Below are positions 175 to 26,104 of a stretch of DNA of 64,000 nt, one piece after another. The position numbers and the translations under genes are program-made. The notes under the pieces were generated by a model that did no database searches, was not told the DNA's origin, and saw only the letters and a list, made by a program, of their open reading frames with translations. Position 1 is the stretch's first letter. The number at the start of each line of letters is the position of its first letter. Location: the NCBI GenBank assembly GCA_051294905.1, contig CM119371.1, forward strand, positions 23,810,001 through 23,874,000, read 5' to 3'. The stretch comes from Botryllus schlosseri (lineage: Eukaryota).

Positions 175-1452
175 ATGGCGGAGTTAATTCATGTACAGTC
201 CCCGGAGGGGGTACATCCCTCATTGGATTTATTTCACATTCCCGCGACACAGACTAGCGTCGAAAAGAAAAGAATCATCAAGATAGCGCCGATTTCGAAC
301 AACTCTAGTGTGATAACATTCCGCTTCGAAGGCTCAGAAGACTTTATCGATTTGAGCGAGAGCTATTTCTTATTTCATTTACAATTAAAGAAAGGTGGCG
401 AAGCAATTGGCGCCGACGATGATGTTGGAGTTGTAAATAATATCTTGGATTCCTTGATTTCTCAACTACAAATTAAAGTCGCTAACGAAACTTTGAAACA
501 AGATATAAAAGTACAGTGTTATTCGTCCTATCTGCACAATTTATTCACTCCGCTTGACGTGCAAAATACCACACTCAGGGCCGCAGGATGGAGAAAAGAT
601 ACTTTAGGAAAAATGGATACGATTGGTGGAACTAGCGCCTCGGCTAACAAAGGATATTACAACAGGAGTAAAGCCTATAAGGATGATAACGTAGTGGAAA
701 TACGTGCAAAAATCCATCACGGACTATGTCTGCAAGACCGCTACATCCTACATGACGTGCCTCTCGAGTTTGAGCTTACCTTGAATCCGAAAAGCTTTTT
801 CATGATGGGAGATGCTGCCGGTCAATTCACCTTAACGAAAAAAGAATTACAGTTATGTACCGTACGAGTCAGCGACGATGTGAAGACAGCGATGATGGTG
901 AATGCCCAGGCGAAATATCCGTATATCGACATGAAATTGATCACCCGAACATTTGCGGCTGCTACGACGCAGATAGATATCGGGAATCTATATAGCGGGA
1001 CTTTACCTTCTCGCCTAATCATCGGAATGGTAGCTACGAAAGCCTTTCAAGGAGATGTTACGAAAAATCCTTACAATTTCATACACAATAATATGCAACG
1101 ACTCGAACTGAAACTGAACGGATTTCTGATTCCGGAGGGAGGTTATGAGCTAGATTTCGATAAGGGTCATTACACGGAGCTTTATCATAACCTGATTGAA
1201 GGTACGGGTGCAATGGAGAAAAACAGAGGACTCCTAACGCCTGAAGAGTTCGCTAGTGGTTTCTGTCTACTGGTTTATAATTTGCGCCCCGATGATTTGG
1301 ATGATTGCTTTGACTTACAAAAGAGTGGTACCTTAAGTTTACGAATCACATTTCCTGCTGGCGGGCTAACAGCGGAAACTACTTTGCTCTGCTTCATGGA
1401 ATTTCAAAAGCTATTGCAAATCAGTAGCAGTCGTAAAGTGACCGTGCTATGA
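175..1452 (+). CDS. Polinton major capsid protein (PY, double jelly-roll/hexon-like)
   Basis: Intact 425-aa ORF with PY motifs: SLDLFHIPATQTS, FIDLSESY, VNNILDSLISQ, HGLCLQDRYI, PSRLIIGMV...AFQG...NPYNF, SGTLSLRITF, C-terminal MEFQKLLQI. Confidence 0.93.
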   Translation: MAELIHVQSPEGVHPSLDLFHIPATQTSVEKKRIIKIAPISNNSSVITFRFEGSEDFIDLSESYFLFHLQLKKGGEAIGADDDVGVVNNILDSLISQLQIKVANETLKQDIKVQCYSSYLHNLFTPLDVQNTTLRAAGWRKDTLGKMDTIGGTSASANKGYYNRSKAYKDDNVVEIRAKIHHGLCLQDRYILHDVPLEFELTLNPKSFFMMGDAAGQFTLTKKELQLCTVRVSDDVKTAMMVNAQAKYPYIDMKLITRTFAAATTQIDIGNLYSGTLPSRLIIGMVATKAFQGDVTKNPYNFIHNNMQRLELKLNGFLIPEGGYELDFDKGHYTELYHNLIEGTGAMEKNRGLLTPEEFASGFCLLVYNLRPDDLDDCFDLQKSGTLSLRITFPAGGLTAETTLLCFMEFQKLLQISSSRKVTVL

Positions 1453-1904
1453 ACGGGGATGAAATAGACCGCATATTGTGGTGCTGCGAGTCAACAAAAC
1501 ATATTTTCCTTGGTACATTTCCTATCGATCGACTGCCGAGGCGACCCCCTCCTCCTTATGCTATCGTGATCAATTATGACGAGGCTCGAAAAATCGGAAG
1601 TCACTGGATATGCATTTACGCGGATGAGGATGAGACACATTTTCATGATAGCTTTGGCTTAATGCCGTTGAAATACGAGATTGCGTGCTTTATAGAACCA
1701 GAAAATTATACCTGCTCCATAAAGCGTCTGCAGCACAAACGTTCCAGAGCGTGCGGTCATCATTGTCTAAGCTTCATCGTCCATAAGGCGCGCGGATGGA
1801 GTACGGAACGTTATTTAGATTCCTTTGGCGAAGATCACCGCAAGAATGATTCGATCGTACGACGCTTCGTCAAGGAGCTGAAGCAAGAAAATGAAATTGT
1901 GTAA
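1449..1904 (+). CDS. Adenain-like cysteine maturation protease (clan CE, PRO)
   Basis: Intact 151-aa ORF with catalytic motifs GSHW (His), HDSFG (Asp), RLQ (oxyanion Gln), ACGHHC (Cys); start overlaps the capsid stop (ATGA). Confidence 0.93.
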   Translation: MNGDEIDRILWCCESTKHIFLGTFPIDRLPRRPPPPYAIVINYDEARKIGSHWICIYADEDETHFHDSFGLMPLKYEIACFIEPENYTCSIKRLQHKRSRACGHHCLSFIVHKARGWSTERYLDSFGEDHRKNDSIVRRFVKELKQENEIV

Positions 1905-1915
1905 ATATATATGTG

Positions 1916-1921
1916 AATAAA
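1916..1921 (+). terminator. Polyadenylation signal AATAAA for the capsid-protease transcript
   Basis: AATAAA 12 nt after the protease stop. Confidence 0.6.
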
Positions 1922-2007
1922 ATCAATAGTTTCAAAGTTTACTTAGTACGTTTAAGGGTGATATTCGCTACGTTCATTATAGCAATCATCTCAAAGTAGT
2001 AGACTCT

Positions 2008-4570
2008 AAATCAGCAGTAGCGACTTGCTTTCGATTAGTCGATAGTGTCTACATATTATCATCATCTAGCAAGAGCCAGGAATTTATATTGAGCGACTTC
2101 CCTCCTACAGCAAACGCAACTTACATTACGTCGTTACTGAACATCAAGTAATAAGCGGGACTAGGCCGGCTACCCTTAATACGAATTTGCATTTTGCTGG
2201 CACAATCTATGCTATAGTTGAGCGACCTCAGCACACTTCTTTGATATAGCTGCACAACGATCTAGACTTCGGCGTCTGGTACAGATGTGATGTTATAGCT
2301 TCAACTCATAGCGTTTTAGGAGATAAATTATAGCATAGACATAGGTTATAGATTTTATTCACTATCGGAAAAGCATCAGTGCACTAGCTATTTAAATCAC
2401 GCATCTAAAAGCAGCAGCTTATGGACTAGTGGCTTCATAATATCATCATCTAGCAGGAGCCAGGAATTTGTATTGAGTGACTTCGCTCCTATAGCCCCAG
2501 CAAACGCAGCTTACATTAATACGGCGTTACTGAACATCGAGTAATAAGCGGCACTAGGCAGGCTACACTTAATACGAATCTGCATTTTGCGGGTACAATC
2601 TATGCTGTAGTTGAGCGACTTGAAATGATACGACCTTGGCATACTTCTTCGATATACATGTAGCTGCGCAACGATGTAGGCTTGAGCGCCAGCGTCTGGA
2701 ACAGATGTGATGTCGGTGATCTGAAATGTTAAGATATAGCTTCAAGCCGCTGTGGCGTAGCGTTTCAGGAGATAAATTATAGCATAGACATAGGTTTAGC
2801 TATAGATTTTATTCACTATCGGAAATGCTATGATAACGCATCAGTACACTAGCTATTAAAATCACATATCTAAAAGCAGCAGCTTATGGACTTGTAAAAT
2901 CGACATAATCTCAGTAGTTAGATGCTTGCTCTCGCAATTTGCCACTTTTATGCCATGAGTAAAGCTAGCTAAAGATTTAGCTTCAAGACGCTGTGGTGTA
3001 GCGAATTTTATTTAAATCAGCAGTAGCGACTTGCTTTCGATTTATACAGGCGATAGTGGCTACATATTACCATCGTCTAGCAAGAACCAGGAATTTGTGT
3101 TGAGTGACTTCGCTCCTACAGCAAACGCAACTTACATTATTACGGCGTTACTGAACATCGAGTAATAAGCGGCACTAGGTAGGCTACCCTAAATACGAAT
3201 TTGTATTTTGCTGGCACAATCTATGCTATAGTTGAGCGACTTTGATACGACCTCAGCACACTTCTTTGATATAGTTATAGCTGCACAACGATCTAGACTT
3301 GAACGTCGGCGTCTGGTACTGATGTGATGTTATAGCTTCAACCCGTAGCGTTTTAGGAGATAAATTATAGCATAGACATAGGTTATAGATTTTATTCACT
3401 ATCGGAAAAGCATCAGTGCACTAGCTATTTAAATCACGCATCTAAAAGCAGCAGCTTATGGACTAGTGGCTTCATATTATCATCATCTAGCAGGAGCCTA
3501 TTAGGGAATTTGTATTGAGTGACTTCGCTCCTATAGCCCTGGCAAACGCAGCTTACATTAATACGGCGTTACTGAACATCGAGTAATGAGCGGCGCTAGG
3601 CAGGCTACACTTAATACGAATTTGCATTTTGCGGGCACAATCTATGCTATAGTTGAGCGACTTGAAATGATACGACCTTGGCATACTTCTTCGATATACA
3701 TGTAGCTGCGCAACGATGTAGGCTTGAACGCCGCCGTCTGGAATAGCTGCGATGTCGGTGATCTGAAATGTTAAGATATAGCTTCAACCCGCAGTGGTAT
3801 AGCATAGACATAGGTTTAGCTATAGATTTTATTCACTATCGGAAATGTTATGATAACGCATCAGTACACTAGCTATTAAAATCACATATCTAAAAGCAGC
3901 AGCTTATGGCCTTATAAAATCGGCATAAAATCAGTAGTTAGATGCTTGCTACAACTCGCAATTTACCACCTTTATGGCATGAGTAAAGCTAGCTAAAGAT
4001 TTAGCTTCAAGACGCTGTGGCGTAGCGAATTTTAGAATAGCTCATAAATTATATAGCTCTGCTAATTCGTGTCACTATTAGCATAGGTTTATATTGGCTA
4101 TAGATTTTATTCACTATCGGAAATGTTATGATAAAGCATCAGTGCACTAGCTATTAAAATCACATATCTAAAAGCAGCGGTAACTTACCAGCGTCATCAG
4201 TCGAAGTGCATAGAGGGATAGGCCTAGTTGTGATAGAAATGTGAAATTTTCTGAGCGTAAATTGCGTGTGCGATGTCGGCGTTTTGATCTGAAATGAAAA
4301 AATTTAGCTTCAATCCGCGGCAGCGTAGCGAATCTTAGAATAGTCGATAAATTATATAGCTATGCTATTCGTAGCACTATAAGCATAGGTTTATATTGGT
4401 TATATATTTATTCACTATCAGAAATGGTAAGATAAAGCATCACTGCACTACCTATTAAATCAGCTCCATTACGTATCTAAAAGCAGCGGCTTATGGGCTT
4501 GTAAAATCAGCATAATCTCAGTAGTTAGATGCTTGCTACAACTCGCAATTTATCAACTTTAGGTCGTGAG
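2008..4570. repeat. Higher-order tandem repeat array in the Polinton tail (about 0.4-0.6 kb units; ~1006-bp dimer repeated twice, plus two partial copies)
   Basis: AAATCAGCAGTAGCGACTTGCTTTCGATT at 2008 and 3014; CATC(A/G)TCTAGCA near 2060, 2444, 3071, 3481; ATTTTATTCACTATC-type motif six times between ~2350 and ~4415. Confidence 0.9.
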
Positions 4571-4899
4571 TAAAGCAAGAATTCATAGACTAACATCCAT
4601 CTCAAATCCGAAGTGCATACCCGCCTAATTATAACCAAATTTAGTGCGAATCTATACGATAACAGAAAACTTGCATATACATTCGAATCTGTGCGACTTC
4701 GGCTATATTGCCGGTTAACATTATAGCCGCGCACAGAACTCACTATTACGTTAGCTATTGGAGAAATCTCAACGTAAATCAATCTGCGTTCACAAGTAAG
4801 CTAATGCTGTATCGAGAAATTATAGCTAAATTGAGTTTAAATTGACACGAAAATACATTGATCTTACCTCGTCTGCGATGCCTGCATCCCTGCGCACAT
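3557..4899 (-). CDS. Candidate spliced leftward gene of the Polinton (exons 4899-4868, 4288-4189, 3762-3557), unknown product
   Basis: GCCATG start; donors GAG|GTAAGA, CTG|GTAAGT, AAT|GTAAGC; acceptors TTTTTCATTTCAG and AACATTTCAG; exon phases join into an open frame of about 112 codons; no homology recognised. Confidence 0.4.
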
Positions 4900-4964
4900 G
4901 GCAATACTTTTAACAGAAGTGTGAAGTTTTCAGAATGCGAATTGCTTTACGTCGGAAGTAAACA

Positions 4965-5499
4965 TTCTAATTCGTATCGCCAGCGCGGCGTTTTCTTGGA
5001 AACGCAACTATATATTTAGAATGTTCTAATTCCCATTATCGATGTGGCCCGACTTCTTGGAATCGCAACTATATTAGAATGTTCTAATTCATATTGTCGA
5101 TGTGACCCGACTTCTTGGAATCGTAAGCAACTATATTCGTACCACATTTACACGCGTCAATTTCTTGGAATAGTATTCAGCAATATGCGCGGCGCATGAG
5201 CTTTGCGTGATCGTAGGCCTTTATGCTTGCGATATCAGTATTATTAAGTTGCATTTGCAGAATTCCCCAAAATCATTGACTAATTAATGAATCTAATTCA
5301 TATTGTCGATGTGACCCGACTTCTTGGAATCGTAAGCAGCTATATTCGTACCACATTTACACGCGTCAATTTCTTGGAATAGTATTCAGCAATATGCGCG
5401 GCGCATGAGCTTTGCGTGATCGTAGGCCTTTATGCTTGCGATATCAGTATTATTAAGTTGCATTTGCAGAATTCCCCAAAATCATTGACTAATTAATGA
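4965..5499. repeat. ~58-bp degenerate repeats plus a 209-bp near-perfect tandem duplication (5083-5290 / 5292-5499)
   Basis: TCTAATTC...TTCTTGGAA...GCAACTATA units near 4965, 5024, 5082; block from 5083 repeated at 5292. Confidence 0.9.
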
Positions 5500-5628
5500 T
5501 GACACAGCTGTTATAGTACACACGAATATAGTCTTACATTTATGTGTAATAACTCGAAAAAGGTGTTGTCTCGGAATTTAAGAGAGAATCGGCGGTTATA
5601 TTCTCAAAACAGCTCAATACGGCTAGTT

Positions 5629-5705
5629 TGCTCAATAGCCTGGTGGTGAGCGACGTGAAATTATACCCAACCAAACCAGGTTCGATTCTAGCTTAGGTAA
5701 GTTTT
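5629..5705 (+). ncRNA. tRNA-like Pol III type-2 unit inside the Polinton terminal region (VA-RNA-like candidate)
   Basis: A box TAGCCTGGTGG (5636-5646), B box GGTTCGATTCT (5679-5689) at tRNA spacing, TTTT at 5702-5705; cloverleaf stems degenerate. Confidence 0.5.
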
Positions 5706-6022
5706 GATGTGGCAATGAGTGACATAGGTGCAGCAATCGACATCGCGCGGGTTGATGCTGCGCAGCGTATAGATGCGACAATCAATGCGGTGATGATGTG
5801 GCAATGGTTGGATGATGTGGCACTATAGGCGTGGCACTTGATGATGTTGCGCAGGTGATGTGGCAATGGGTGTGCTATAGGTACGGCAATGGGCGGATGA
5901 TGTGGCAAGGGGCGTCCTATAGGTGCGGCAATGGGCGGATGATGTGGCAATCTAGGCGTGGCAATTAAGGCGACGTGGCCTTCTGGGATTGGCGGGGCAT
6001 AAAAGTAGATCCCCTCACTACT
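5706..6022. repeat. GC-rich subterminal repeats and terminus of the Polinton (presumed TIR/origin)
   Basis: GATGTGGCA about six times, CTATAGGTRCGGCAATGGGCGGATGATGTGGCAA twice, terminal ACTACT; matching left TIR not in the window. Confidence 0.75.
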
Positions 6023-6465
6023 CAAAGAGCATATCGCTGCATGACTTTGACAAAAAGTACGTTCTTGAAATTGGTCTTTATCCCAGCTTGACCAGCAAAT
6101 TGCATCAAATTTTGGAAGCACGTACGCCTGTGAACAATAGTTGTGAACAATGAAATTCACGAAGGGCAAGCTAAGATCACGTATTTCTGACGTCCATTTT
6201 CAATAGGGGCTGATTCTTGTTTCATCTGACTTGTTACCAGAAGTTGTAAACCTTCCACAGAGCAAGCTGCGTCAATTGTCACAATTATTCTGTGTTGTTG
6301 AAGTGTAAATACATGTGTCTTCTGATGGGTATGATTGAGATTGCAGTAATGTAGGATAATATACCGAAGTGAGCGTAAAATATAGTACTAAGAAAAATTC
6401 CGGCCCGCCAAAAAGTTGTGCACCCGAAATTTGGCCCGCGACTAGCTAAAGGTTGCCGAACCCTG
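6023..6465 (+). pseudogene. 3' part of a decayed Buster/Charlie (GTF2IRD2-like) hAT transposon interrupted by the Polinton
   Basis: Reads SLHDFDKKYV...YPSL / IASNFGSTYACEQ*L*TMKFTKGKLRSRISDVHF (hAT dimerisation motif with stops); ends GGCCCGCG...GGTTGCCGAACCCTG. Confidence 0.8.
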
Positions 6466-9400
6466 CGTTACGTGAAGCCGGGAGATAATCAAGCGCAATT
6501 TGATTGGTTAATTACGCTGACACCAATCTCGCCGGCCGACCGATAGAAAGGAGAACAATCGATCTTCTGAATTCGAGAGCGATCAGTTTTTGTACATCAG
6601 AGGCGCCGCCTCACTGTAGTGTCAAAACGGTTGCGTTCACTTCTCTCCTGCACTGTCTTCGCCTGGTTCAGCATGGAATATACACATTTTGTTGACTGGG
6701 TGGCGTCATCCCAACACTGCTACTAACCTCGCATTGTGAATAGCTATAGCAGCCCAACGTTTATGTACTTACCATACCGGTCGTGAAAAATATGGAATGT
6801 TGTCTTTATCTGTCGATGAAATTTAGATGATAAATACAGCTCATTTATATGAATCAAAATACGTATTTTTGTCCTTCTAACAACAAAACCTAAAGTTCAG
6901 ATCTTGAACCGTTTTGTGAGAACCACAGCATGGGAATAAATATATCTCAACAGTTCTGACTGTCAGAGTGTATTCAAATGAATAAATCATGGTCAATAAT
7001 AATAGTCAATCATTTAGACATATCAATGGGCACACCTCATTTTATCACATTTAGTGTGCATGGAGGATTAATCATTAGTAAAATAGACTTTCCACCTCTA
7101 TTTCTCCTATAGTATATGGGATTATTAATATTAAAAGTTATGTATTTAAATTACCGATTTTTCAGCTTTTTTACTCATGCATTATTTTTTACGTTTCTAT
7201 TATGCTTTATTGTGCATTGATGTAGCCTACACCAGTGATGAGCGGCTATAGATTTTTGAGAATACGAATCCATCCGATGGCTTGAGTGTCTGTGAAACTA
7301 TCCGACCGAATCCGAAGAATGTCATCCAACTATGCGACTATATCCGAAAATGTCATACAATAACCCAAAAAAAATCCGTATCGAAAAACGTTGTAGCAGA
7401 GGGCATCAATTATACAACGGAGCTGAGATACAGTTCGGCACTAGAAGATCACTAATAGTATCAATGGAATGAGCAAAATCAAAAATTGGACTTTTAATTA
7501 TTGGAAGGTTAACGCAAAGAGACATAGCTACTAATTTGAAGTAGGTGTGCAGATGAAGGTGTCCTCTCGTAACGAAAGCAAATGAAAAAGAACAGAAATA
7601 TTTAGGGAATAGATATAAAAAAATAATGAACTGTATTATCTAATAAATATCAATAAGTAATTGAAGCTAATTGTTACAATAGAAGTTCACAATATTCGAT
7701 GCAAATATTCCGCATTTTGTCAACAAATACTGGAAGCTGTGAAAGCTGGTTTACTAGCAACTTGCTGATGCTTATAATACCATTGTTCAATCAGTTCAAA
7801 TATTGGGACACCATGCTTGTAGTCACACAATATACATAAGGCTAAAGCAGATAGTTGATTTTGATTAACTTGGATCATTGACAAACATTTTAGAGCAGTG
7901 GTCGGGAACCTATGGCTCGCGAGCCATATATGGCTCTTTTGGGTATAAGATATGACTCTTTTCCAAATATTTATTTTTGTACTGAATTGATCAATATTGT
8001 AGCAACTTGTTAGTACATTTTAATCACGGCCAGATAATTATTGTCGTGGCAGTATAAACATGTCTGTTAGAGGTAAATCCTCAAATTTAAGTTACTATCG
8101 CGCCGACGACCAATATCAATCGCGAATTCGATGCACCCGATTCGCAATCTTAGATTGCACAATACGTTGATTGATCAAAGAGAATAGCAGACATGCCGAC
8201 GCCCATATGACAACGCAGTTTTCAAATACACATTGTCTTCCTGATCTACGGCGCGAAATGAACTGCATTTAGACGTAGAATTCACAATTACAAACTCGAA
8301 TTACAAACAACGCCATAGCTATCCACGTTCTTGATTGCTAAGTAGCTCTGTAGTATCGGCGATAAAATGTAGGCGAGTATCGCAACGCTATATGTTACCG
8401 CCGAATACTCTGAGAATTGAAAAGTCGATCAGTATTTAGATTTTTGGAATCGTTAAAGCTACACTCGATTAATATCAGTTATAACAAATTCTAAGCTATT
8501 TACGATGAATTGCGTTATCAATGATGACTTGGCCCATCTGTGCCTTAGCTGTCGTTTCGCGCTTTAATTTCGAATAATAAATACGCAAATTGTGTCATTA
8601 CGGGAGACAAATGTTCAAACTCTTGTCGTTCATGAACATCGATAGAAAATACCAATAGTAATTGACAGGGCCGTAACAGCACTTCGTCAGCCCCCCAAAA
8701 AACGTTGGTCATGGGCCCCCCATAGGTTGATAAACCGAACTTCTGCCCCAGACCCCCCTTGCTTATCCGCTGTTTACCGCTACTCATCATCTGTGTTGAT
8801 CGTCCGTTTAGTGCGGCAGCTTTTGTCGTCCAGACGCGCGAAGCGAGAAAAATTTCAAAATTCCTGATTGAATCGGTCAATATGATCGGGAATTGAACAT
8901 ATATTGTTATCAATTTTTATCCTCTCTCTGCCCACGTAATCAGATTTACCGGTAGACCTGAGTGAGGTGCGTTTGAAATGGTAGGACCCCTCAATAATAA
9001 TTTCACATCTTCGGGCGTATACCCGTTCGCAGGAACGAGACAGCACTTGGACAGGCCCCCCAATAAAACTTGGGTCTTGGGCTCCCATAGGGTGATAAAC
9101 CGCCCCCATCACATTGTTCGCTTTTGTCACGAAATAAGGGCCACAGTTTAGTGAACCAGCGCTAAGCTCGAAAATTTTCGATAATTCATGATAAAATCGG
9201 TCAATAATATTGGGAATTGCATATATATTGCTATCAATTTCTTGTTCTCTCTGTTCACGTTATCAGATTTACCGGTAGAGCTGAATGAGGTGGCTTGGAA
9301 ACTGTAGGGCCCGTAAATAATAATTAAACATATTCGGGCGGGCGGCCCCGTGGGTATGACTTCGTTTCATGATGTCATTTCGTGATCTCCTGTCTGTTAC

Positions 9401-10301
9401 ATCAAAAAATACAGAATCGCCCAAATGTACTAAACCAGAGGTCTCAAACTCAAATGTGCTCGCGGGCCAATTTCCTACCTTTTATGGCTCCGCGGGCCGC
9501 AGTAGGCCTACCAATGATAGGAGAATTCAATGTATTTCCAAGTAGGTCTTATTTGACGGGACCTTGCAGACTGACATTCCACAAGTGTCGTAAAAATGTG
9601 TGAATTACTATTGTGAATTCACGCCTGGCACGAAAAAGATAACATTTTTATATGTGCAAATAAAATTGTTACTGTACTTGGCATAGTTTGTCAAAATAAT
9701 TAGTTGTAGACACCATACGAGAGAACAAATATGGGAACCAGACATGGGGTGATTACTTCATGAATGTAATCGATTGCGATTACGATTACTTCGGAATCAC
9801 GCGATTACGATTACGATTACGATTACAGCAAAATCAGGAAGTAGTCGATTACGATTACGATTACATTGGAAAAGTAATCACGATTACTCACGAATACATT
9901 TGTTTTGCTTCTTAGAACTATAATCTTAAATGATATATTGGAAGACAATGCAAGGATTGCGATGAAAAGGTTTAATGAGATATCAACTCTCTTCATGCAT
10001 CATGCATCATTTGCTTATTACGTCATAATATACCAATTGCCCAACTTTATAGGGGATGATTTATCGCACCCAACGATTTGCATTATTGCCAGGTCTTTAC
10101 CTGCCGCACCCCAAAGTATTTAATAGGGTGGGGAGCGTGCTTGAAGGGGACTCAAAAGTATTTCGTAAACCAACTTAAATTATAGAGTATTTTCGAGAAT
10201 TTAATTAATTCTTGAATATGTTCTTCGAGCTTCGCGATTCAAATGTCTCTAGTAGGTTACGGGGACACCAACGCGGACCAAATGAGTCGCCCGCGGTCGC
10301 T

Positions 10302-10646
10302 GTGGCAAATATCCGAATGAGAGATTCGAAAGTTGAAGCTGGTTTCATATGAGCAGCAGTTGAACATGGGCCGGCCGACCCCAAGGAACATACGAACGCA
10401 GTCGCTCGGGGCATTGCTCGTCTTCGCCCACGCAGCGGCTCAGCGGGAATCAATAGTTAATATTCCCGAGTCTCGACGCGGAGATTGCCGCTTCGGCGCG
10501 CACTGCATCAACGCAACTGAGCCCGGAGAAGCTGGTGTGAGTCCCGGCGAGTGAGCGTTTTCTGTTCTTGGTAAGGGGCGGAAACCCGGCCTAGGTGAAC
10601 TCTAAGTGAAGAAATCCAACTGAACACGGATAAACGGTGGGAGTAA
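10302..10646 (+). pseudogene. Diverged 28S rRNA-derived fragments carried in element E
   Basis: GTGGCAAATATCCGAATGAGA...CAGCAGTTGAACATGGG...CCCGGAGAAGCTGG (28S D7 region) joined to AAGTGAAGAAATCCAA...TAAACGGTGGGAGTAA (conserved core upstream of the R2 site); compared with remembered 28S consensus. Confidence 0.8.
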
Positions 10647-11844
10647 GTGGTAACCCGTCGGTCGTCGAAATAATCAGTAGACACTACACAAGAAGTAGCT
10701 TTTTGTTTCAAAACGGTTGGTGACCCCTGCTCCAGTAGATAGCTGGGTTTGAAATGCATACCTCTTCCCCCAATGAAAAAATGCATAGGCTATTGGGAAC
10801 AGGCCTTTCGGAGCCGGTCATTACAGCGCCACGATTCCACATCAAACCAAAAGACTTGTGCATGTGCAGTTTCGGCCAACACGCAACTGCATGGGATGCG
10901 ATACCAAAGAAATACCTTGGCCGAAACTTACGGTATTCGTCCATTGTCAATAGCCGCGCTGGGTGGGCGTGACTAATAACTCCTGTCCTTCCAATCTGGA
11001 CCCACAATGCAAATCCCACCCGGCGCATCCACAAAGGAATAAAGCCATGACAATTTGTGTGTGCGTCTCACGAAAGATATTCTTTTAGTCTGCTACGTTT
11101 GGGCGAGTACAATATCTTTTGATTATACAACAGACTGGAGGTCGCGAATTAACAACATACAATAAAGTAATTATAACAACATACCAGATGCTATAATTAT
11201 GAATTGCGTGCCCCAGATCTACAGGTAAATCTTACACTCGGGACTGAGAGAGGTTATAAATGAATAGTAATATAATGCAAGTACCAATATTATTGACGAA
11301 ATGCAGTTTTGAAAATTGACCAACGGTTGGACTGGGGGACGAATTGCAGTTTTGGTTCTGATTCTAGCTACAACCCACGCGGATGTAATGGCGCCAGGTC
11401 CAAATGCTGAGTAACGAACTGTGAAATAACGATTGATGCCCGTTTCAAGTAGTTATATGAGAATAAGACAGTGAACATAAAATTTCTGCCTTCAACTTAA
11501 TAGCCTACATATACTGCGAGCTGCTGTTACGAGAAACGGCTAAGCACGGCTCGGTTATGATATATATCAGCAGCTGTTTATTTGTAATGCTTCGTTGTGG
11601 AAACTGCAATGTTTTATTCGACGAGTACAAAATTCCGAATCTTCGTCAGATGCACGTGCGTACGTAGGCCTCCTGCTCGCCACGCAGCAACGGTAAACTG
11701 CGTTTAACTAAGCACAACCAAACATCAATACATAAGTTACTATTAGAAACTATAGGCAGAGTGGGTGATCAATATCCTGTTGCGAGGTAGCGCTTCTGTA
11801 GTGTATTGATAACCTGATATACACCACGGGGACGTTGTTACAAT

Positions 11845-13104
11845 TAGGGTTGGGACTTCGGGATCAAATTTGAAATCCCGGGATCGGGATTTTCCCGGGA
11901 TTCTCGCTTCTCAATCCCGGGATTTCCCGGGATTGGAAAAGTATTGAAATACACTAACAAGCTACACAATAGGGCTGTTCAAAAATAACCTTTTTTCCTG
12001 AATCTTGCTGGGTACGTTATAAAATCGTTAAGTTGCCTTAAAAAACGACGCACACCAAATTTGAATTCATTCCAACCAATATTCGCGGGTTTCGTAGAGT
12101 TTGAAAATTTTGAATTAAAAAAAAAAAATTTCAAATTTTTCTGCCAACCCCATGCAATTGTTGGGCTGTCTTCAAAAACTATGCAAAACAAATTTGACTC
12201 AATTACAAGTAGGGTTGGGACTTCGGGATCAAATTTGAAATCCCGGGATCGGGATTTCCCGGGATTTTCGCTCCTCAATCGCGGGACTCCCCGAGATTAG
12301 AAAAGTAGTAAAATAGACATACAAGTTACACAAATAACATTTAGTCCTTGTGATATTGAATTGACGCAAAACATAAGAGCATCAAGAGTATCATCGTTTA
12401 GATCAGGGGTCCGAAACTCCAATTTTATCGCGGGCCAATTTCGTAGTTTTTGATGACGCGGCGGGCAGCAGCATCAAATAGGGGTATAATATGTATTTCC
12501 CAGTACGCCTTTTTTGTCGGACCTTGCAGATTGGCATTCCATACACATTGTGAAAATGTAATACAATATTGTAATATTCACGGTTGCCACGAAAAAGTCA
12601 TATTTTTCAATATTTTTTAAAAAATATTGTTGTGCTTGGCATAATTTGGCGACAGAAAGGAGTTATATAGACAGTTAGAAACCATGCGAGACGACAAATG
12701 CATCGTGTCATCGTAAAAGCTGTCGCATTATAATTTAGCAGCTAGTGGACGTTTGATGTGTGATAGCGATTCAGGTTTTTGGAGTGGTTTCAGAATGAAA
12801 TTTCAAGTTCTCAAATCCGAAATCTGAAATTTTCGAGTTTAATATTGTAGAATGCTTGAAAAGTCAAAACGCCGACGTGGGCCGCAAAAACAGTTCTGGC
12901 GGGCCGCGTGTTTGAGGCCACTGTTCTAGACAATCAGCCGAGTTTGTGACACTGCTTTATTACCAAAATAAGAGATATGGCGCTACATAAGCCTTGGTAG
13001 ATGCTGATCACAAATCCCGGGATTTCATCGGGACCAATCCCGGGATCGGGATTGCTTCAAATCCCGGGATCCCGGGATCGGGATTTCCCGGGGTCCCAAC
13101 GCTA
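11845..13104. mobile_element. hAT MITE family F (ATCCCGGGAT palindromic repeats); nest level 6
   Basis: TIRs TAGGGTTGGGAC / GTCCCAACGCTA; TSD GTTACAAT; left end duplicated at ~12210. Confidence 0.85.
12404..12923. mobile_element. hAT MITE related to family D; nest level 7
   Basis: CAGGGGTCCGAAAC...GTTTGAGGCCACTG; body homologous to 9436-9730 and 13487 onward; TSD degenerate (GTTTAGAT/TTCTAGAC). Confidence 0.75.
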
Positions 13105-15172
13105 GTTACAATCACACTGCAATGTCCATCGCATGTCTGTTTACTATGTGTGGATACTTCTTACGCAATGACGAGCGGAGCTAATACTTCTGACGCAACA
13201 ATGAGTAGTGGCGTTTGAAAACAGACGTTTGTGCTATCGCTAACGTGGTATATTATCTCATTCTTGTTCACGAATATTCAGTTTATGTCATAGTCCTTGT
13301 ACAAACAAAAAGTAATCGTTCTTTCACAAAAAAATCGATTAGATATGGGAAGTAGTCGATTACGATTACGATTACTTCGGATTTTTTTCGAATGTAATCG
13401 ATTGCGATTACGATTACTTCAAAATGCTGTAATCGTCGTAATCGATTACGATTACTAATCGCGATTACCCCATGTCTGATGGGAACATCGTAAAAGCTGT
13501 CGCGTTATAATTTTGCAGCTAGCGGACATTTGACGTGCCGCAATTATAGGTAGAATTTTAGAATTTTACAAAGATTGATCTGATACCGAGCATTGGAGCA
13601 GTACAGCCAAAACCGGGTTTCGGGTATACTCCTGATAAATAGGCTATTGGTGACATCATTACCAAAGTCAAATTAAATCATCGTTATTACCTTCGAATAT
13701 TTGAACGGATCAATAAAAACTTGAATCTGCTGATTACTGTGCCATTGCAATAGATGTGTTCAATCGCCGAAGAATCCTTTTATGATACAGCTGTGAATTA
13801 TAGGTTGCGAATGCTATACTCTCCACATTTAATTGGCGATAATAACATGTATAAAGATACCCAAGATGACACAGGATGTAACCAACTATACATCAAGAGT
13901 GCAACATAATGTCAATTGTTGCCATACCTACCTGCTTAGATATCTAAAAAGCTACGAAACTTAAGATACGACCTTTTGATATTTTACTATTTTCCATACC
14001 AGTTTGATAGTTTGCTGCGTCCGTGGTTGTCCATAGTCACGGCGTTCCGCTTCACAAAGGTCCTTCTCTGATTGTACCTTTTGACGCGACTTTACTAGAG
14101 TCAGTTTTATTTTATCACCCATTAAGTTCGGATGATTCTACAAAAGGTCGCGCCCAAGTCCAAATCACAATTTTCAGTAGAAATCATCAACGGGCCATGT
14201 TTAACCATAATAAACAAGATGATGTCACGTAATAGTTAACCTTCTACTGCGTCGTAACTTTTGAAAGTTATGTAATAAGGAAGTTTGATGAGTAGTTTCG
14301 GGCTTCTGGAGTAGTTTTAGAGCGAATTTTAAGTTCTCAAATTAAAAGAAAATGGTAGTTACATATTGTCGAATACTTCGAAATCCCAAATGCCATCGCG
14401 GGCCTCACAAAACAGTCTCGCGGGCCGCATGCGGCCCACGGGCCGCGTGTTGGAGACCTCTGTACTAAACTAACGACGCACACGATTTCAAATTGGTATT
14501 TCTTCACGGGCATACAATTTTCCCTGCGGAATGGTATTTGTCTTCTGAGGTTCGGATTGCCAAGACAGGAACATTCGGCGCCAATCATTTAGGCGCCTAT
14601 GGACAATTAAACCTATATGCATTTTGCATTTATAACGAAGTTTTCGGTCAGCGTAAGCGGACAGTCCTTTTTGGCCCAGGTTTTCTCGCTGCCGATCGTA
14701 CTGGCACACTTCTTGGAGTCGCATGTTACATGTTCTAAAACCTTAAATGTCTCGGCGATATGTCAATTTCGATAAAACTTGCGTATTTTGTCTTGGGGGA
14801 AGAGTAGACTACCAAATAAGTAAGAAAAGTTGGCAACATGAAATCGCGCGCAGCGCGAAAAATTTTTGAAAAAGTTGCATAAATTTTTGAAAAATACTTT
14901 ATAATTTATGCTAATTCGCGAGATAATTTTGGGCCTCCTTCGAGCTCGGGTCCCCCCAATTGGGGGGTTTGGGTGCGGCACTTACGGTCCTGGTAATTGA
15001 AGGTTTCACCATTTTCGTTCACTCATCATCCTGACGAACGCGGAGGTACTGCACTGCCTCACTTGCCTTCTCTGATCCGACGTCACTGATGTATCATAGC
15101 TTAGAGTAGGTAGGTAATTAGCCATATATACTGCTGTAGTGACCATGCTCGGCTCCGCGTATGCATGTGATC

Positions 15173-16758
15173 CAGTGTTGGGATGACTCGAGTCAGACTC
15201 GAGTCACCTTTTTCGTATGACTTGACTTGACTCGAGTCACTTAGCTAAAATGACTTGACTTGACTTGATTCGGCGTATCAGAAATGTGGATTGACTCGTG
15301 ACTCGGAGCAAAATTCACGAGTCAATTTCAAGTCGTCAAGTAATCGCTGACGATAAAAATCACTGTATCTTGCATATCTTCGGATTGTTCGCGAAACGCT
15401 GGTTAATCCCGTGATAGTGACCAATCATTCAATAATCGTGCGTTTCACCTCCATTGTTCTTTCATAAAAAAATGGACCGCAAACGAAGTGATCGAAGCTT
15501 ACAGCTTACTTTGTTGCAAACTAGTAGTAAAGTGATTTACAAAAGGTCTATTTCCGTTCTATTATCTTACCTTAACATAACCCCTTGTTTTATTGAAATT
15601 GAAGTCGAATATGGTTTATATAGTCCTCAACAATTTGTACAATGTACAGGCATGAATTGTATCATATCAATTTGTAAATGGGTAATTCACTGCATCTTAT
15701 CCATTCGTTTCTCTATTCTCTATTTTGACTGGTAACTATAAACTGAGGCTATGTAATTACTTCCATATAGCTTTCAATACAACATCCATTGTAGCAGTAT
15801 ATTTATTAAACTCGAAGACTTTTCGGGTGCCTCTTTTCAAGAGTTATCGGCACACTAAAGGGATTTAAACAGATTTAAAAGCAAAACCAAAAAGACAAAG
15901 TATGACGCAACAATCAAAATCACAGACCATGAAATTCGCATCGTATCAATGGCAACAATAACAAACTACGAAGTATACGGACATACGGTACTATAGTAGC
16001 AGCACAATTTGTAAATAAACAATTACACGCACGGAACAACACGCACTAATGAGAAATTTGTAGGTTATAGAGGAAATCTTTCTGTCTGCATAAAATAGGT
16101 TTGCTCAACTGAATAATAGTAGACTCCAACACTTTTAAATGAAACACAGACCTACCACGCGCAATGACAGTGAACATATTGTCATCATAGTGCTGTGCAC
16201 AGACAACGTTTTCGCTCAGATGCTGACCGATTGACGAAGCATATGCTTGGTAATCATCATAGCAGTCTGTTTTTGCAGCCAATTTGCACTGACGTGTGAG
16301 CTCCGTGTTTAATAAATATACTGCTACAATGGATGTTGTATTGAAAGCTATATTCAAGTTCTGTAGCACGAACCAGCTATTTAAGTAATTACTTCCGTAG
16401 TTTAGCAGTTCTACGTATAAGTAAGCGATACAGCGCCTTCTTGCGTGTATATTTAATTCTATATTCGTTCATCGGTTCGGAAAGTATGGCCACTCAATCT
16501 GTTTTTTAGTCAGCTAGCAAAATGCAATGACGTAATCATGCCACATACTTCGAAAAGTCAACTTGACTTGAATTGTGATTTGACTTGTGACTTGACTTGA
16601 CTTGACTCGACTTGACTCGAGTCACCTCCCAAAATCGAGTGACTTGACTTGACTCGAGTCACCTTCGAAAATCGATTGACTTGACTTGACTCGAGTCAAA
16701 ATGTGCAATGACTCGAAATGACTCGTGACTCGAAGGTAGTGACTTGATCCCAACACTG
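15173..16758 (+). mobile_element. hAT MITE family H ((GACTT)n GACTCGAGTC arrays), copy 1
   Basis: TIR CAGTGTTGGGAT; TSD ATGTGATC. Confidence 0.9.
15765..16384 (-). mobile_element. 5'-truncated Penelope-like retroelement (GIY-YIG C-terminus plus pseudo-LTR with inverted partial copy)
   Basis: SSIGQHLSEN...FTVIARGRSVFHLKVLESTIIQLSKPILCRQK; 15765-15811 inverted at 16307-16353; 12-bp TSD GTAATTACTTCC; absent from the sister MITE at 19636. Confidence 0.85.
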
Positions 16759-17343
16759 ATGTGATCACCGGTTCTCCCGTTTAAAAGGTTCATCACCACG
16801 AACCTACGTTCTCGTAACTCAAGTTTCGCGTGCTTAAATAAGGCAACCAGCATGATTAGAACGAGTTTTTAAAGAGACGTGGTGCACACGACGAATCCAA
16901 TGTAATGAGTTGGAATTAGTGCTATCGCGACGTCACGAATTGTCGATTGTGACGTAACAGTTGATTGAAATGTATGGCTCTTTGAGAGTTATAAGGTAAA
17001 AAATAAGGCCGATATGGCTCTTCGGACAAAAAAGGTTCCCGACCCCTGTTTTAGAGTAATACCAGTTCATATAGCAAGATGTCAAATGTCTATGTTTGGT
17101 TATCGAATTGATGAATTCTTTCTATCGACCTATAATCTAAACTCACTTCTGGTTACAACTATATACAACTATATCCGTATGGAAATTTACAACTATCCGA
17201 CAATATCCGAAAAAAATCCGTGATCAAATCCGAATCCTATACGACTGCCACAGAATTGTCCAATATCCAGTCCCATGCTCAAGCCTACACCGCTGTAGAT
17301 CTCATGCGGCTAGTGCTACAATGCTATACAATTTTTTTGTCAG

Positions 17344-19092: not shown

Positions 19093-21075
19093 TAGGGATG
19101 GTTTGAACCTTTGAAAGGTTCAGGTTCGTGTGAACGCAAACCTTTTTGGAAGGTTCTGTGTGACCGCGAACGTGAACCTCATGGCGTCACGTGACGTCAT
19201 ATTTCTAATTTCAACCTTACATTTCAGTGAAGTGATAGCCTATATATTGTTGTACAGTTGTACACGATACCTAGCGACGACTCGGGCCACATAATGTCAC
19301 AATGCCGAAGTACATACTGGACGTTTCAAACATCGCCAAATGTACCAACAGGGGGTATCAAATGATATGATAATCCCATAAAATCAATATCTTCCCTCGC
19401 TTTGCCAACAATTTTGATGAGGACTTGCAAGGGAATATATAGGCTTACGCCTTAACGGTCTAGGCCAGACCGGACAATGTATTCGGGGTTCAAGTATTGC
19501 TACGTTGATATTGAGCAGAGTATAAAACGGGTATCTATACTTGCTACCGATATTACCCCATTAACAAGTTATACAGCGGTATACAACACCCCAATCGCAC
19601 GCATGTGATTTTTATGACACAATAGACATAAACACCAGTGTTGGGATGACTCGAGTCATGACTTGACTCGAGTCAGACTCGAGTCACCTTTTTCGTATGA
19701 CTTGACTTGACTCGAGTCACTTTGCTAAAATGACTTGACTTGACTTGACTCGGCGTATCAAAAATTTGGATTGACTCGTGACTCGGAGCCAAATTCACGA
19801 GTCAATTTCAAGTCATCAAGTAGTCGGTGTCGAAAAAAATCACTTTATTTCAGGTATGTGCGAAATGTTCACGAAACGCTGCTGTAACCCGCGAGAGCTA
19901 CCAATCCTTCAATGATTGTGCGTTTTACTGAGCCTCCGTTGTTTTCTCACCCTCACAAATATATTGACCGCAAACGAAGTCGAAGCTTACAGCTTACTTT
20001 GTCGTAAACTAGTATAGTAAAGTAATTTGATAGAAAAATGTATATTTCACTTCTCTGTTCTTACCTTAACCAAACCTCTTGTTTTATTGAAATTTAATTC
20101 GAATATATAGTTTACGTATAGTCCCCACCAATTGGCGCAGGCTCGAATTGTATCATATCAATTTGTAAGTAGGTAATGTATTGCATCCTATCAATTCGTT
20201 TCTCTATTCTCTATTTTGGATGGTGACTATAAACTGAGGGTATCCAATTACTTACGTAGTTTAGCAGTTCCACGTAGCCCATATGTGAGCGATACAGCGC
20301 CTTCTGGCGTGTATAGTTAACTCTATATTCGTTTCATCGGTAGAAAATCAATGACCACTCAACCTGTATTTCAGACAGCTAGCAAAATGCAATGACGTAA
20401 TCATGCTTCATACATGGAAAAGGCAACTTGACTTGAATTGTGACTTGACCCGTGACTTGACTTGACTTGACTTGAGTCGAGTCACCTCCAAAAATCGAGT
20501 GACTTGACTTGACTCGAGTCACCTTCGAAAATCGATTGACTTGACTTGACTCGAGTCAAAATGCGCCATGACTCGAAATGACTCGTGACTCGAAGGTAGT
20601 GACTTGATCCCAACACTGATAAACACATCAAATATAGATTGACCCGGTACGCCTGCTACATTTTTTACATCAGACAACGATATCAACTTTATTGAGTTGT
20701 TGACCTATTCGCTGACCTACATGTAGCGTATTTCGCTCTTAATGTTGTTTGATTGCAGCTGCAGGTCAAGCTCACAGCAGAGAGTCTCTAAATATTCGAG
20801 CAAACTTTTGTAACAAAACTAGTAAAATTTTTGGGATTATCAAGGTGAATGCTCGTTTAGTGTTTATTTTTGTTTTGCTGCCAGCGCCATGAAAATAGTG
20901 GCCCGCAGTTTAGATACAATAAATTTCAACCAAAGATGTTCTAATAAAGTAAAAATTGTAATATATAAAAAAAAGTTTCACAGTGCAGAACCTACCAAGG
21001 TTCGTTTGTGAACGTGAACGTCTAAAATTCAGAGGTTCACACACAGAACGCGAACGTGAAGTTCACACCATCCCT
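19093..21075. mobile_element. hAT-type MITE with GTGAAC/GTTCAC repeats, hosting an H-family copy
   Basis: TAGGGATGG...CCATCCCT ends; imperfect CTCTCA flanks. Confidence 0.7.
19636..20618 (+). mobile_element. hAT MITE family H, copy 2
   Basis: TIR CAGTGTTGGGAT; TSD ATAAACAC. Confidence 0.9.
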
Positions 21076-23623
21076 CTCTCATGCGTCCTGATCATGGCCT
21101 ACACTGGCGATTAAAACTCGGTTCAATTTACGTCTGGGATGTTAATATACCGTCGTTGTAGCGATATGATGACCCCAGATAAACCTCCGAAACATTGATT
21201 TCATCGCAACCGTGATTCGTAACCACTTCCAATGATGCCGCAAAGCTGAAGTGTGACAAACTGCGCCAGACTCTTGTCAAGGAGATGTACATGTCACATC
21301 TTAAACTAATATAAATTATGCCCGGGGTAGGATTCAAATTGTAGTCTACTGGCCGGCATAGCGATATTTTTCAGCAAATAATATTTTTTATATAAGTACG
21401 AATATCGTTTTGAAAAGATAATAAGAAGGCAGTGCAGTAGCGACTTGAACAATCACGCAATCATCGGTGATGCTTATGGTGAAATTTATTATTTTATGAA
21501 TTTATTATTTTATCTCTCACTCAAAAACTCACTGAAAAAGCTGATTCAACTATCGCATTCTATAAAATCAAATTATCTAGCAAACTATAATTAAGATTCA
21601 AGTCGCTGTAAGAATACGATGCAACCAAGGTACCAGCGAAGTGTGCGAGTTAGCTGAAAAACGTTACTGCGAAATAACCCACTGAAAGAAACCCCGCAAA
21701 ATTTAAATTTATAAACCTAACATCACAATTATTATACAAATTAACACGATTTATAATTAATGCGTGCGTACCTGACAATAGCAAATTTTGAATATTTGTG
21801 TGCCATTTGGATCTACAAAAATCTGTAGGTCCAGCTGTATGAAATAATCCGCTGATGTATTGCAAAGAGTTTCCCTGATAGCACATAATTATGTGGGACT
21901 GTTCTACAGACGGATGAATCCCTTCAGTTATTCTGTTAGAAGTTTTTATTTTTATGACGCGATCATCAGAGGTAAGAGCTGCACGTGATATGAGATAATT
22001 TTTTGATTTAGTGGTGGCTTTTTCCTAAAGTAATTCAGCCATGTTTTGCGTTTTTATATTTGTGAGTGAGTTTTTAGCAGTAGAACAGAGCAGTGATGAG
22101 CGGATGTTGATTTTTGAGAATCCGAATCCGTCCGACAGTTTTTGTGTCTGCGGAACTATCCGTCCGACTCCGAAGAATCTCATCCAACTATCCGACTTTA
22201 TCCGAAAATCTCGTACAAGAATCCGAAAAATCCTTATCGAATAATGATATCGCAGAGTATCAATTGTACAGCTGAGCTTAGATACAGTTCTGCACTAAAA
22301 GATCACGAATTGTATCTATGGAATGAACAAAAACAAACAGAACAAAAATTGGAATTTTAATTATAGGAATGTTAACGCGAAGAAACAACGCTACTAATTT
22401 AAAGTAAGTGTGCAAATGAAAGTGGTATCTTGGATCAAAAGAAAATTAAAAATGACAGATTATTAGGCCATGGCCATATATAACAATCAGGCATTTAACC
22501 ATATTACCCAATATCAAGAAGTGATAGTAGCAAGTTGTAACTATGGAATTTTACAATCTCAGATGGTCAATATTGGATGCAGATAATCCGCATTTTGCCC
22601 ACAAATGCTGGAATGTGTGAAAGCCTGTTCAGTAGAAACTTGCTGATGCTTATAATACCTTTGGTCAATCAGTTCAAAGTTTTGAGCATGGCGCTTATAG
22701 TCGAGTCACACAAAATGTCGATAATAGCACCATCCTGAATGTCCCTCTTTAGCTGTCCAAATTTCCTCTCCAGTGACTAGTAGCAGGTCAGTAGTTGTCT
22801 TGCCGACTTGTATATTGGAAGAGAAGAAACTTATCTCCAAGTGTGCTTTATCCTTGGCCTTTCGGATATGATTTGTAAGGTGCATTGGGCCACTTGAAAA
22901 GTTGTGGTGTTTCACTTGAACATATCAATTATTGCATAGAGGCAGTGTCCCATAAATCAGGATGCAATCTCTCCATACTTCACTCTTGCTGTGCTATCTC
23001 TCAAGACGTCGACTTTCCTCATTGATCCATTATTACGGAGAAACTAAACTCAGACAGCACGAGCAGTTTGACAACATTTGAGGTCTTCAAATAATGCAAA
23101 GTAAACTGTACGGTACGGAGTACACTTCGAACAGTTGATGGAGCTCCACTCAAGAGAAATGACGCATCCCTAACGCACTGATCACCACTCATTGGTGTTG
23201 ACTTTCAAACTGTTTACATGGTCTCTCGTTTAAATCATACAGAAGAGCACCATAAAAACGGCAAGGTTTTTTTCACGATTCTTAAAATGAAATCAAATTA
23301 ACATGAACAGACCATTCGTTGAGAAAAAACTAACAGCTTTTGTTTATATGGCTCAGTGGTTCTAGATGATTGATTCCGTCAATCATATTGGAGAAAATAT
23401 AGCTGCTGAAGGAAAGGAAGTGTAAGCAGGAGTTGAATAGGTTTGTGTTTCGTTGTAACTGTATATAGGAATTCTGGATTTCATAGCCTTGTTATATGTT
23501 ATTAGTTTACCTTAGTAAGGTATGCATGTATCTTGAATGATTCCAAAGGGGACGATAAGCTACTCGCTACTGTATAGTCGAGGCATCGTTATAATAATTA
23601 TCATACATTTTATCTGTGTACAT

Positions 23624-26104
23624 TAGGGTTGTTCAGAATTGACGGACTTTCAAAAAGTCCAGGTTTTCAGTCCGATTACCATGCCTTATACCTTAAAAAC
23701 ATATTCTGGCTACTTTTTTTTGTAACTCATCCCCTGCATCCGTGTGCACATTGAGCTGGAAGAATAGCAGCTGAAAATAGGGGATTCCCCTAAAATCTGA
23801 GTGTCACGATTTTACCTGGCCTAGTTAAAGTGACATATAACATGGATTTATGCAGCTGTTGCGGTTTGGAGTGCTACAAAACCCCACTATATAAGGCATT
23901 CCTTGTTCAGGATATCATTTCCATGTCCCACACTGCCTTAAAACTGCTCAAAACTACCTAAAACTGATAGTCATTTGGTTGGATCACATGTCCTATACAC
24001 CCCTCAAATCTACCCGGCACTGTTCATCAATTTCCTGGATCCCAATGTGCAAGAATGCAACTTTAAATGTAACATCCACTCACAGCCACATAATAAACAT
24101 CACAGGAAACGAAAAAATAAGGCAAAGAAAGAGATCAACTTGGCAAAATATTACATAAATCAGGTGGATGAAATAGTTGATTTCGAGAAATCTGCATATC
24201 TGTTCCGGTGATCTTCCACAGCTTGCAGGAGGCTCGCTCGCTGTTTTTTGTCATCCGTTATGTACGCAGCATAGTCGGTATTCAATTTTACCATACGCTC
24301 TGCTGCATCATTAAAGTGCTACAGGAAAAGCACAGGCTGATGCATCATTTGAACTGCTGGAACTTTGGAATTTAACAAAATCTGTTAGAGCTCTTGTGTT
24401 TGACACAACATCCTCAAACACTGGTAAAAACAAAGGTGCGGTTCCGTTACTTGAAGAATTGATTAACAGGAAAGTTTTCTACAATACCTGTCGCCATCAT
24501 ATTTATGAACTGGTCATGAGGTTTGGAAGTGTTTGTTTGGATCGACAACCACAGGCCCTGAAAACACGGATTTTAATACCTTCAAGAAGAAGTGGAAACA
24601 TATTGATAAATCAAGAAGCTATAAAACGCTGAATTTTATTGAAGGCAGCTGGTTGGCGATGAAAGCTGATGAAGCAAAGCAAGAAATAATTCCACTGATG
24701 AAACCCAATGATGGAAAGCAGAAAGAAGTCTTGATAAGAGATGACTACAGAGAATGTGCAACAGGCACCTTGGCGATTTTGGATGACAAATATGTTGATC
24801 ATCGTTTTCGCAAGCCTGGTGCTACTCATAGCGCTAGATGGATGAGTCAAGTCCTGTACTGTCAAAAAATGTTCATGTGGAGTGAGCAAATGGACTATTC
24901 TGAAGAGTTCATTGAAAAGTTGGAACGAATCAATACATTCATTGCTTTGTTTTATGTTCCAGCTTGGTTGAAAACTGGTATTGCATGTGACGCACCTTGG
25001 AATGATCTCAAATTCCTTCATGACATGAAAAACTTTTCATTATGCGATCTCACTGTTGCTGATGTGGCATACAAGAAATTGCGAAAACATCATTGGTATC
25101 TAACTGAGGAAATGGTGGTATTTACCACGTTCTCGGCTAATCCAAAGATTCCTGACAAACTGAAGGAAGCGATGGCTGCTAAATTGCTGAAAATGCCAAT
25201 CCCTGAAAAATTTCGCAGATGTAGCCTATGCCTCTCAGTCTGATCTCTGACTCTGTCTCTGAGTCAATGAGTATGGCGATTTGATTGGGCCAGAATCGTG
25301 GTTTCTATTTGATGCTATACATGTGGAACATTATTGGTTGAGTCTTCCAGTTTCGGAATGGCATACTGATCCGGATTTCGTGACTGCTCAAGAATTTGTG
25401 AATACTGTTGAAGTAGTTAATGATGCAGCAGAGCGGAAGCTAAAATTGAATACCGACTATGCTGCGTTCATAACGGATGACAAAAAACAGCGAGCGTGCC
25501 TCCTACAAGCTGTTGAAGATCACCGGAACAGATATGCAGATTTCTCGAAATCAACCATTTCATCCACCTGATTTATGTAATATTTTGCCAAGCTGATCTC
25601 TTTCTTTGCCTTATTTTTTCGTTTCCTGTGATGTTTATTATGTGGCTGTGAGTGGATGTTACATTTACAGTTGTAATCTTGCACGTGGGGATCCAGGAAA
25701 TTGATGAACAGTGCCGGGTAGGTTTGAGGGGTGTGGGATATGTGATCCAACAAAATGACTATCAGTTTTAGGTAGTTTTGAGCAGTTTTAAGGTAGTGTG
25801 GGACATGGAAATGATATCCTTAACTAGGAATGCCTACTATAGTGGGGTTTTGTAGCACTCCAAACCGCAACAGCTGCATAAATCCATGTTATATGTCACT
25901 TTAACCAGGCTAGGTAAAATCGTGACACTCAGATTTTAGGGGAATCCCCTATTTTCAGCTGCTAGTCTTCCAGCTCAATGTGCACACGGATGCAGGGGAT
26001 GAGTTACAAAAAAAGTAGCCAGAATATGTTTTTAAGGTATAAGGCATGGGAATCGAACTGAAAACCTGGACTTTTTGAAAGTCGGTCAATTCTGAACAAC
26101 CCTA
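23624..26104 (+). mobile_element. hATm-like element with ~690-bp inverted arms (two right ends)
   Basis: TAGGGTTGTTCAGAATTGAC ends; 23624-24314 is the inverted copy of 25417-26104; TSD GTGTACAT. Confidence 0.9.
24315..25571 (+). pseudogene. hATm-family transposase, N-terminally truncated and frameshifted
   Basis: VFDTTSSNTG, CRHHIYEL, PGATHSARWM, HHWYLTEE, VVNDAAER split over three frames. Confidence 0.88.

Follow-up and report, generated by a model that had tools for sequence, protein, structure and literature searches.

The window, a 64-kb stretch of DNA, starts inside a Maverick/Polinton element and includes its right end. The element belongs to this class by its capsid fold and its end motif. 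The major capsid protein ORF has 4683 relatives at E ≤ 0.001, and its AlphaFold model (pLDDT 94.7) finds its best Foldseek matches in the capsids of Sputnik, PBCV-1 and mavirus (E 1.6e-16). The next ORF is probably the maturation protease: its position after the capsid gene fits the Maverick gene order of PMC8097293, and searches with it gave no Pfam match and only a weak match, to the cysteine protease S273R (E 0.62). Both ORFs are intact. Pattern scans of metagenome and viral contigs gave 0 matches, and locus searches with the capsid and protease found none. The 4.1 kb that extend from the protease stop to position 6022, referred to below as the tail, contain the spliced unit considered here, and the features are collected in Table 1. 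On the minus strand, a 168-codon stop-to-stop frame (5693–6199) lies over the element end and runs through a 42-bp subterminal repeat; it has no Pfam match and is probably a product of chance.

Several other features occur elsewhere in the window. Two almost identical 3.75-kb copies (9732–13483 and 37565–41316) lie 24 kb apart in opposite orientation and are probably a recent transposon pair or an inverted duplication. A 2.5-kb element (23612–26116) has inverted arms of about 700 bp (94–95%) around a 194-aa ORF fragment. At 43012–44614, on the minus strand, a THAP-domain ORF (E 1.2e-7) adjoins a transposase-like fragment (E 0.0099), and three overlapping plus-strand ORFs (257, 259 and 112 aa; 56295–58383), for which there is no Pfam match, appear by eye to be one broken transposase. 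A non-coding element with GACTT-rich subterminal repeats is present in three copies (15171–16760, 19651–20620 and 47232–48659).

Table 1. Features of the element's right end, by position in the window
Feature	Position	Strand	Remarks
Major capsid protein gene, 425 aa, double jelly-roll	175–1452	+	ORF
Probable capsid-maturation cysteine protease, 151 aa	1449–1904	+	ORF
Extended poly(A)-signal-like 16-mer	1913–1928	+	8 nt past protease stop; also in tail units; candidate signal
Exon-3 copy D	2125–2294	-	Acceptor lost, frame broken, donor kept
Block 6, acceptor-like TTTTAG + AATAAA	2341–2425	-
Exon-3 copy C	2515–2720	-	Acceptor and donor intact; candidate exon, outside RNA-mapped stretch
Block 5, acceptor-like + AATAAA	2795–2890	-
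Exon-3 copy B	3136–3331	-	TTTCAG acceptor deleted, frame broken, donor kept
Block 4, acceptor-like + AATAAA	3378–3462	-	Candidate terminal exon after exon 3 (putative use)
Exon 3 (copy A), 206 nt	3557–3762	-	Acceptor of this type seen in use (X1 joint, X21 loose ends)
Block 3, acceptor-like + AATAAA	3815–3910	-	Inside intron 2
Block 2, acceptor-like + AATAAA	4095–4180	-	Inside intron 2
Exon 2, 100 nt	4189–4288	-	TTTCAG acceptor; CTG|GTAAGT donor
Block 1, acceptor-like + AATAAA	4395–4497	-	Inside intron 1; more diverged
Alternative 85-codon frame	4525–4783	-	Weak acceptor; without RNA support
Exon 1 from ATG, 32 nt	4868–4899	-	GCC before ATG at 4899; ends GAG|GTAAGA, phase 2
Subterminal repeats (58 and 209 bp) with six TTCTTGGAA STAT/GAS-type sites	4993–5379	.	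Candidate promoter or enhancer
Element right terminus, ending in (ACT)2	6011–6022	+	End motif AGTAGT at 6022, as in PMC8097293

Leftward exon chain and its joins in RNA

An earlier note on this DNA had proposed that the tail hides an unannotated, alternatively spliced leftward unit, and the coordinates, GT/AG sites and phases that it gave for the exon chain are all exact when the sequence is read again. Its joined frame is open over 113 codons, provided that the donor at 3556 stays unused. The additional acceptor that it placed at 4783 does put the 4782–4525 frame in phase with exon 1, but this acceptor is pyrimidine-poor, its junction was not seen in RNA and its product is unsupported. A chain in which exon-3 copies A and C follow each other in tandem was rejected, because an exon of 206 nt that is entered in phase 0 is left in phase 2 and the frame is lost. 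With the motif stringency set once the sites were known, 1000 simulations of a 1.5-kb region gave no three-exon chain of at least 112 codons, whether the motifs were strict or loose, and any two- or three-exon ORF of that length arose in 5 of 1000 (loose motifs).

Four of 24 runs were aligned to positions 3011–5290 of the window at 85% likeness. (i) X1 consists of contigs, is guessed to be RNA and drops rare variants. (ii) X12 is deep and DNA-like and comes from another individual. (iii) X21 is raw RNA, of which about 6% was read. (iv) X18 had 0 reads aligned and hence provides no test of the junctions. The RNA reads stem from sister copies or other individuals, and the joins they contain are evidence on the element family rather than on this exact locus.

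The predicted junction 4189^3762 is present in one X1 contig at a depth of 9.2, with 426 nt skipped between CT..AC ends and 28 letters on the short side. It has an ambiguity of 1 nt and links non-homologous points of two repeat units, and is thus unlike a repeat-mediated deletion; it is not among the joints listed for X12, where the summed depth is 1200–9300. With copy C beyond the aligned stretch, the proposed junctions 4189^2720 and 4189^3762 look alike in these data. A second, unpredicted join occurs in X21, from which 18 reads of 12.9 million records were aligned. Four of these 18 reads, with two start points, leave the window exactly at the exon-3 acceptor (loose end 3764); when the letters beyond are compared with exon 1 by eye, 26 of 30 agree and no gap is needed. 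In these four reads, then, a sister copy's exon 1 is seen spliced directly to exon 3. The same reads are weakened by a second, unexplained loose end at 3729, where the letters before the adapter again resemble the start of exon 1. The first mate is on the minus strand in the junction reads and on the plus strand in the upstream reads, and the leftward direction is read from the GT-AG ends only.

The donor of exon 2 (4188) is therefore seen in use, but its acceptor (4288) is not: the junctions 4868^4288 and 4868^4783, which the earlier note had put forward together with 4189^3762, are listed in none of the runs that gave reads (X1, X12 and X21). The X1 contig carrying 4189^3762 is continuous from 4303, a point 15 nt inside the putative intron 1, and another contig covers 4274–4369. 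The introns are covered in X1, so that splicing is partial. The X1 depth is 0 at 4987–5138, as against 3600–4000 in X12, and one deep X1 contig bin lies at 5139–5214, upstream of the supposed start. No poly(A) ends or start sites were observed in the aligned runs over 3011–5290. One X1 contig continues for 255 nt beyond 3013, and the nearest 30 of these letters match 1977–2006 by eye; this contig appears to reach the protease 3′ end from the tail, which makes an overlap, of either direction, plausible.

The sister tails are rearranged. One X1 contig (depth 10.1) contains 4855–4956, including exon 1 and its donor, in tandem as a 102-nt repeat, and another X1 loose end leads into repeat-unit sequence just upstream of 4909. 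The summed X12 contig depth of 1200–12500 over 3011–5290 suggests very many copies of the tail. The X1 joints 3330–4036 and 4621–4225 and three X12 joints were rejected as splicing and are regarded as repeat variants: their ends are not GT-AG, or letters are replaced at them. Tunicates are described in PMC1488885 as carrying out spliced-leader trans-splicing; of 58 loose ends, the 14 that were listed include none that looks like a leader and none that lies at 4288 or 4783, while the loose end at 3764 has the exon-1-like letters described above. Splicing is seen in the element family. The proposed leftward unit is supported, though thinly, by one predicted and one unpredicted, exon-skipping junction, but neither its protein nor its 4783 product is supported.

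Coding potential of the spliced RNA

The frame through exons 2 and 3 (102 codons) was likewise open in 634 of 20000 composition-matched simulations and in 1263 of 50000 pieces drawn at random from the window, so that its openness exceeds chance expectation but is only mildly unusual (p about 0.025–0.03). Thirty pair-frame tests gave no synonymous excess (lowest P 0.08), and pN/pS in the claimed frame is 0.48–2.36. Exon-3 copies A and C differ by seven amino-acid-changing and three to four silent differences (P 0.20). Among the 40 listed of 110 variants, eight of the ten sites in exons 1–3 are at codon position 1 or 2, and five of the ten coincide with differences between A and C.

The earlier note had asked for a check of whether the frame is conserved in related elements, and sister copies carry insertions of +4 nt in exon 1, +2 nt in exon 2 and +5 nt in the alternative ORF. 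The first two have X12 depths of 1076 and 1100 and, being unphased, could belong to one frame-keeping sub-family. In X1, the +2 insertion accounts for 7.9 of a depth of 39.4 and the +4 insertion for 0 of 43.9, and the sole contig over 4624–4625 carries the +5 insertion. The join of exon 1 to exon 3 shifts the frame of exon 3, with a stop after 50 codons; the observed isoforms therefore do not keep one frame.

Protein searches with five frames, including exon 3 and the alternative ORF, found no homologue or family, although such blanks do not show absence, and the single-sequence fold of exon 3 (pLDDT 47) is uninformative. With its first junction unseen, no codon signal, no homologue and indels in sister copies, the 113-aa protein is poorly supported, and the other branch of the original proposal, a long non-coding RNA, fits better. 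A role as miRNA or snoRNA host was rejected, since none of the nine segments examined has a better fold than its shuffled versions (z −0.84 to 1.32); an Rfam search of the introns and exons gave only one match (E 4.6).

Tandem array, AATAAA blocks and STAT-type sites

The tail is a tandem array in which a 1.0-kb duplication (3013–4034 versus 2007–3010, 90%) is nested with older units of 400–600 bp. The sequence at 2720–2515, noted previously as a duplicate exon, is indeed 206 nt long and identical to exon 3 at 195 of 206 positions, but the array, which is decaying, holds four such copies in all. Copies A and C have kept both the TTTCAG acceptor and the open frame, whereas B and D have lost both and kept the donor. 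The start of exon 2 is homologous to exon 3, yet it was read in another frame in the original model.

Six units of the tail contain an acceptor-like TTTTAG followed 45–64 nt on by AATAAA. These acceptor-plus-AATAAA blocks are the best-kept part of the array, with 84–100% identity between units as compared with 72–77% when exon 2 is set against the exon-3 type. Copies A and B, however, have diverged equally in the block (88%), the exon (87%) and the post-donor sequence (88%), which leaves the older split alone as a sign of selection on the block. An extended 16-nt AATAAA motif, searched with a pattern that has one degenerate letter and was written to cover both the tail and the protease forms, has six matches in the 64 kb, where 0.02 would be expected. 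Five of them are in the tail, on the minus strand, and the sixth is at the protease 3′ end, on the plus strand. This motif may be the element's own 3′-end signal.

Upstream of exon 1, the subterminal repeats contain six TTCTTGGAA sites of the form TTCN3GAA in 4993–5379, as against 14 in the other 63.5 kb. The sites are repeat copies in two nested families and so are not independent; in the 331 non-redundant bp there are four, and at least four were reached in 0 of 20000 simulations. The 209-bp repeat also includes two TGACG motifs (5159 and 5368) and two κB-like motifs (5268 and 5477). The TTCTTGGAA motif is among the STAT5 ChIP-seq sites given in PMC3907443.

Interpretation and relation to known systems

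The reading that we prefer, tentatively and as falling just short of probable, is that the tail array gives rise to a weak, variably spliced, non-coding RNA that runs inward from a predicted STAT-type promoter and is stopped before the late genes. The promoter would lie in the subterminal repeats with their clustered STAT-type motifs, would likely be responsive to host STAT and would fire weakly, with a start near 4950 that fits the X1 depth of 0 at 4987–5138. The RNA would be variably spliced through the duplicated exon modules of the array, and two kinds of GT-AG join are present in RNA of the family. The six acceptor-plus-AATAAA blocks might act as alternative 3′ ends; the 16-nt signal is common to the tail and the protease 3′ end. 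Such 3′ ends may limit or tune how far the RNA runs antisense into the protease and capsid genes, which converge with it.

An alternative, unlikely but to be taken seriously, is that the unit is a fast-evolving accessory protein gene, encoding 113 aa, or 72 aa from an ATG in exon 2, in which the last exon is supplied by either copy A or copy C of exon 3. The observed junction keeps the 102-codon frame open, at the p value given above for any frame, the exon-3 copies that keep their acceptor also keep their frame while the two acceptor-less copies are frameshifted, GCC stands before the ATG, and accessory regions with diverse ORFs are known in Mavericks from PMC8097293. The +4 and +2 insertions, being unphased, may compensate for each other, but X1 has the second without the first. 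The junction 4868^4288 is unseen, and the spliced X1 contig starts at 4303; the X21 join changes the frame, and neither a codon signal nor a homologue or family was found. An equally unlikely explanation is that the tail is the decayed relic of an old gene, accessory or captured, that was tandemly amplified and eroded; its residual splice sites would be used in leaky transcription from hundreds of copies, with nothing selected. The very low signal in X21, with 0 reads in X18, the coverage of introns in X1 and the uniform divergence of sub-regions between A and B are consistent with a relic, as is the heterogeneity of the sister copies, seen in the 102-nt tandem repeat of the exon 1 region in X1 and in several non-GT-AG joints in X12. 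The intact capsid and protease ORFs and the very high X12 depth of the tail, on the other hand, indicate that the family has spread with this tail, and both the 16-nt signal that recurs at the protease 3′ end and the cluster of STAT-type sites are specific features.

It is highly improbable that the joins arose as artefacts, or through deletion of DNA from sister copies, and that the motifs came about by chance and were then multiplied in tandem. The RNA nature of X1 is only a guess and its contigs drop rare variants, the DNA run is from another individual, the X21 reads look chimeric at their other end, and the density of GTRAG motifs differs little between the two strands of the tail (2.19 versus 1.70 per kb). 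Each of the two joins nevertheless coincides exactly with splice sites that had been predicted in advance, has GT-AG ends and lacks a repeat where the parts meet, and the X1 depth profile departs from that of X12 (Spearman 0.23, P 0.22).

The weak, non-coding inward RNA that we prefer can be set beside several known systems. With Mavericks/Polintons (adintoviruses), as described in PMC8097293 and PMC8502044, the element shares a double jelly-roll capsid gene beside a protease gene, the (ACT)2 end and an accessory region between the core genes and the terminus. It differs in that the capsid and protease genes point outward to the end and that the accessory region is a spliced repeat array without a long ORF. 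According to PMC8097293, no introns were observed in genes of intact vertebrate Mavericks, and the string "splic" is absent from the main texts of both papers. Literature searches of open papers, mostly at the level of titles and the beginnings of abstracts, found no description of a spliced terminal transcript or of STAT sites in a Maverick.

The likeness to adenovirus E4 that had been suggested holds for position only. Conserved ORFs homologous to E4 proteins were not found: none of the five frames has a family or homologue, and there is no codon signal. The unit is accordingly not a member of E4, and homology to it was neither found nor expected. By the account of E4 in PMC7851563, the two have in common a right-end position, a short first exon and a promoter near the terminus, the last being a candidate here. 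In the same account, the short common first exon of E4 is joined to different acceptors; in the tail, exon 1 was seen joined to one acceptor type, in four reads. The E4 mRNAs encode six proteins, whereas the search of the tail revealed no conserved protein, its exons arose as tandem duplicates and it has six copies of a poly(A)-like signal. The ie1 promoter of WSSV, according to the review PMC4728583, contains a host STAT-binding motif with tested binding and drives a protein-coding immediate-early gene. A viral promoter with a host STAT motif is likewise what is proposed for the tail, with its six TTCTTGGAA sites as candidates.

The six blocks also resemble gene-trap arrangements in having an acceptor, then AATAAA 45–64 nt on, oriented to catch incoming transcripts. 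Gene-trap cassettes with a splice acceptor and poly(A) signal, and transposon insertions, cause premature termination of incoming transcripts in this way. The tail blocks differ from such cassettes in being natural, sixfold and inside the element, and trapping by them is only putative.

A bolder form of the same idea, which we consider distinctly improbable, is that a JAK/STAT-responsive switch at the right end of this animal's Mavericks drives spliced RNA toward the capsid module, and that expandable exon/poly(A) cassettes determine either its reach, giving antisense control of the virion genes, or the choice of short peptide that it encodes. If true, this switch would be a latency or early control unit in a class of elements without a described regulatory transcript. 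The spliced terminal transcript, together with the candidate promoter and the repeated putative 3′-end signals, offers a testable handle on the regulation of Mavericks, and it serves as a warning that ORF-based annotation misses the "non-coding" tails of these elements.
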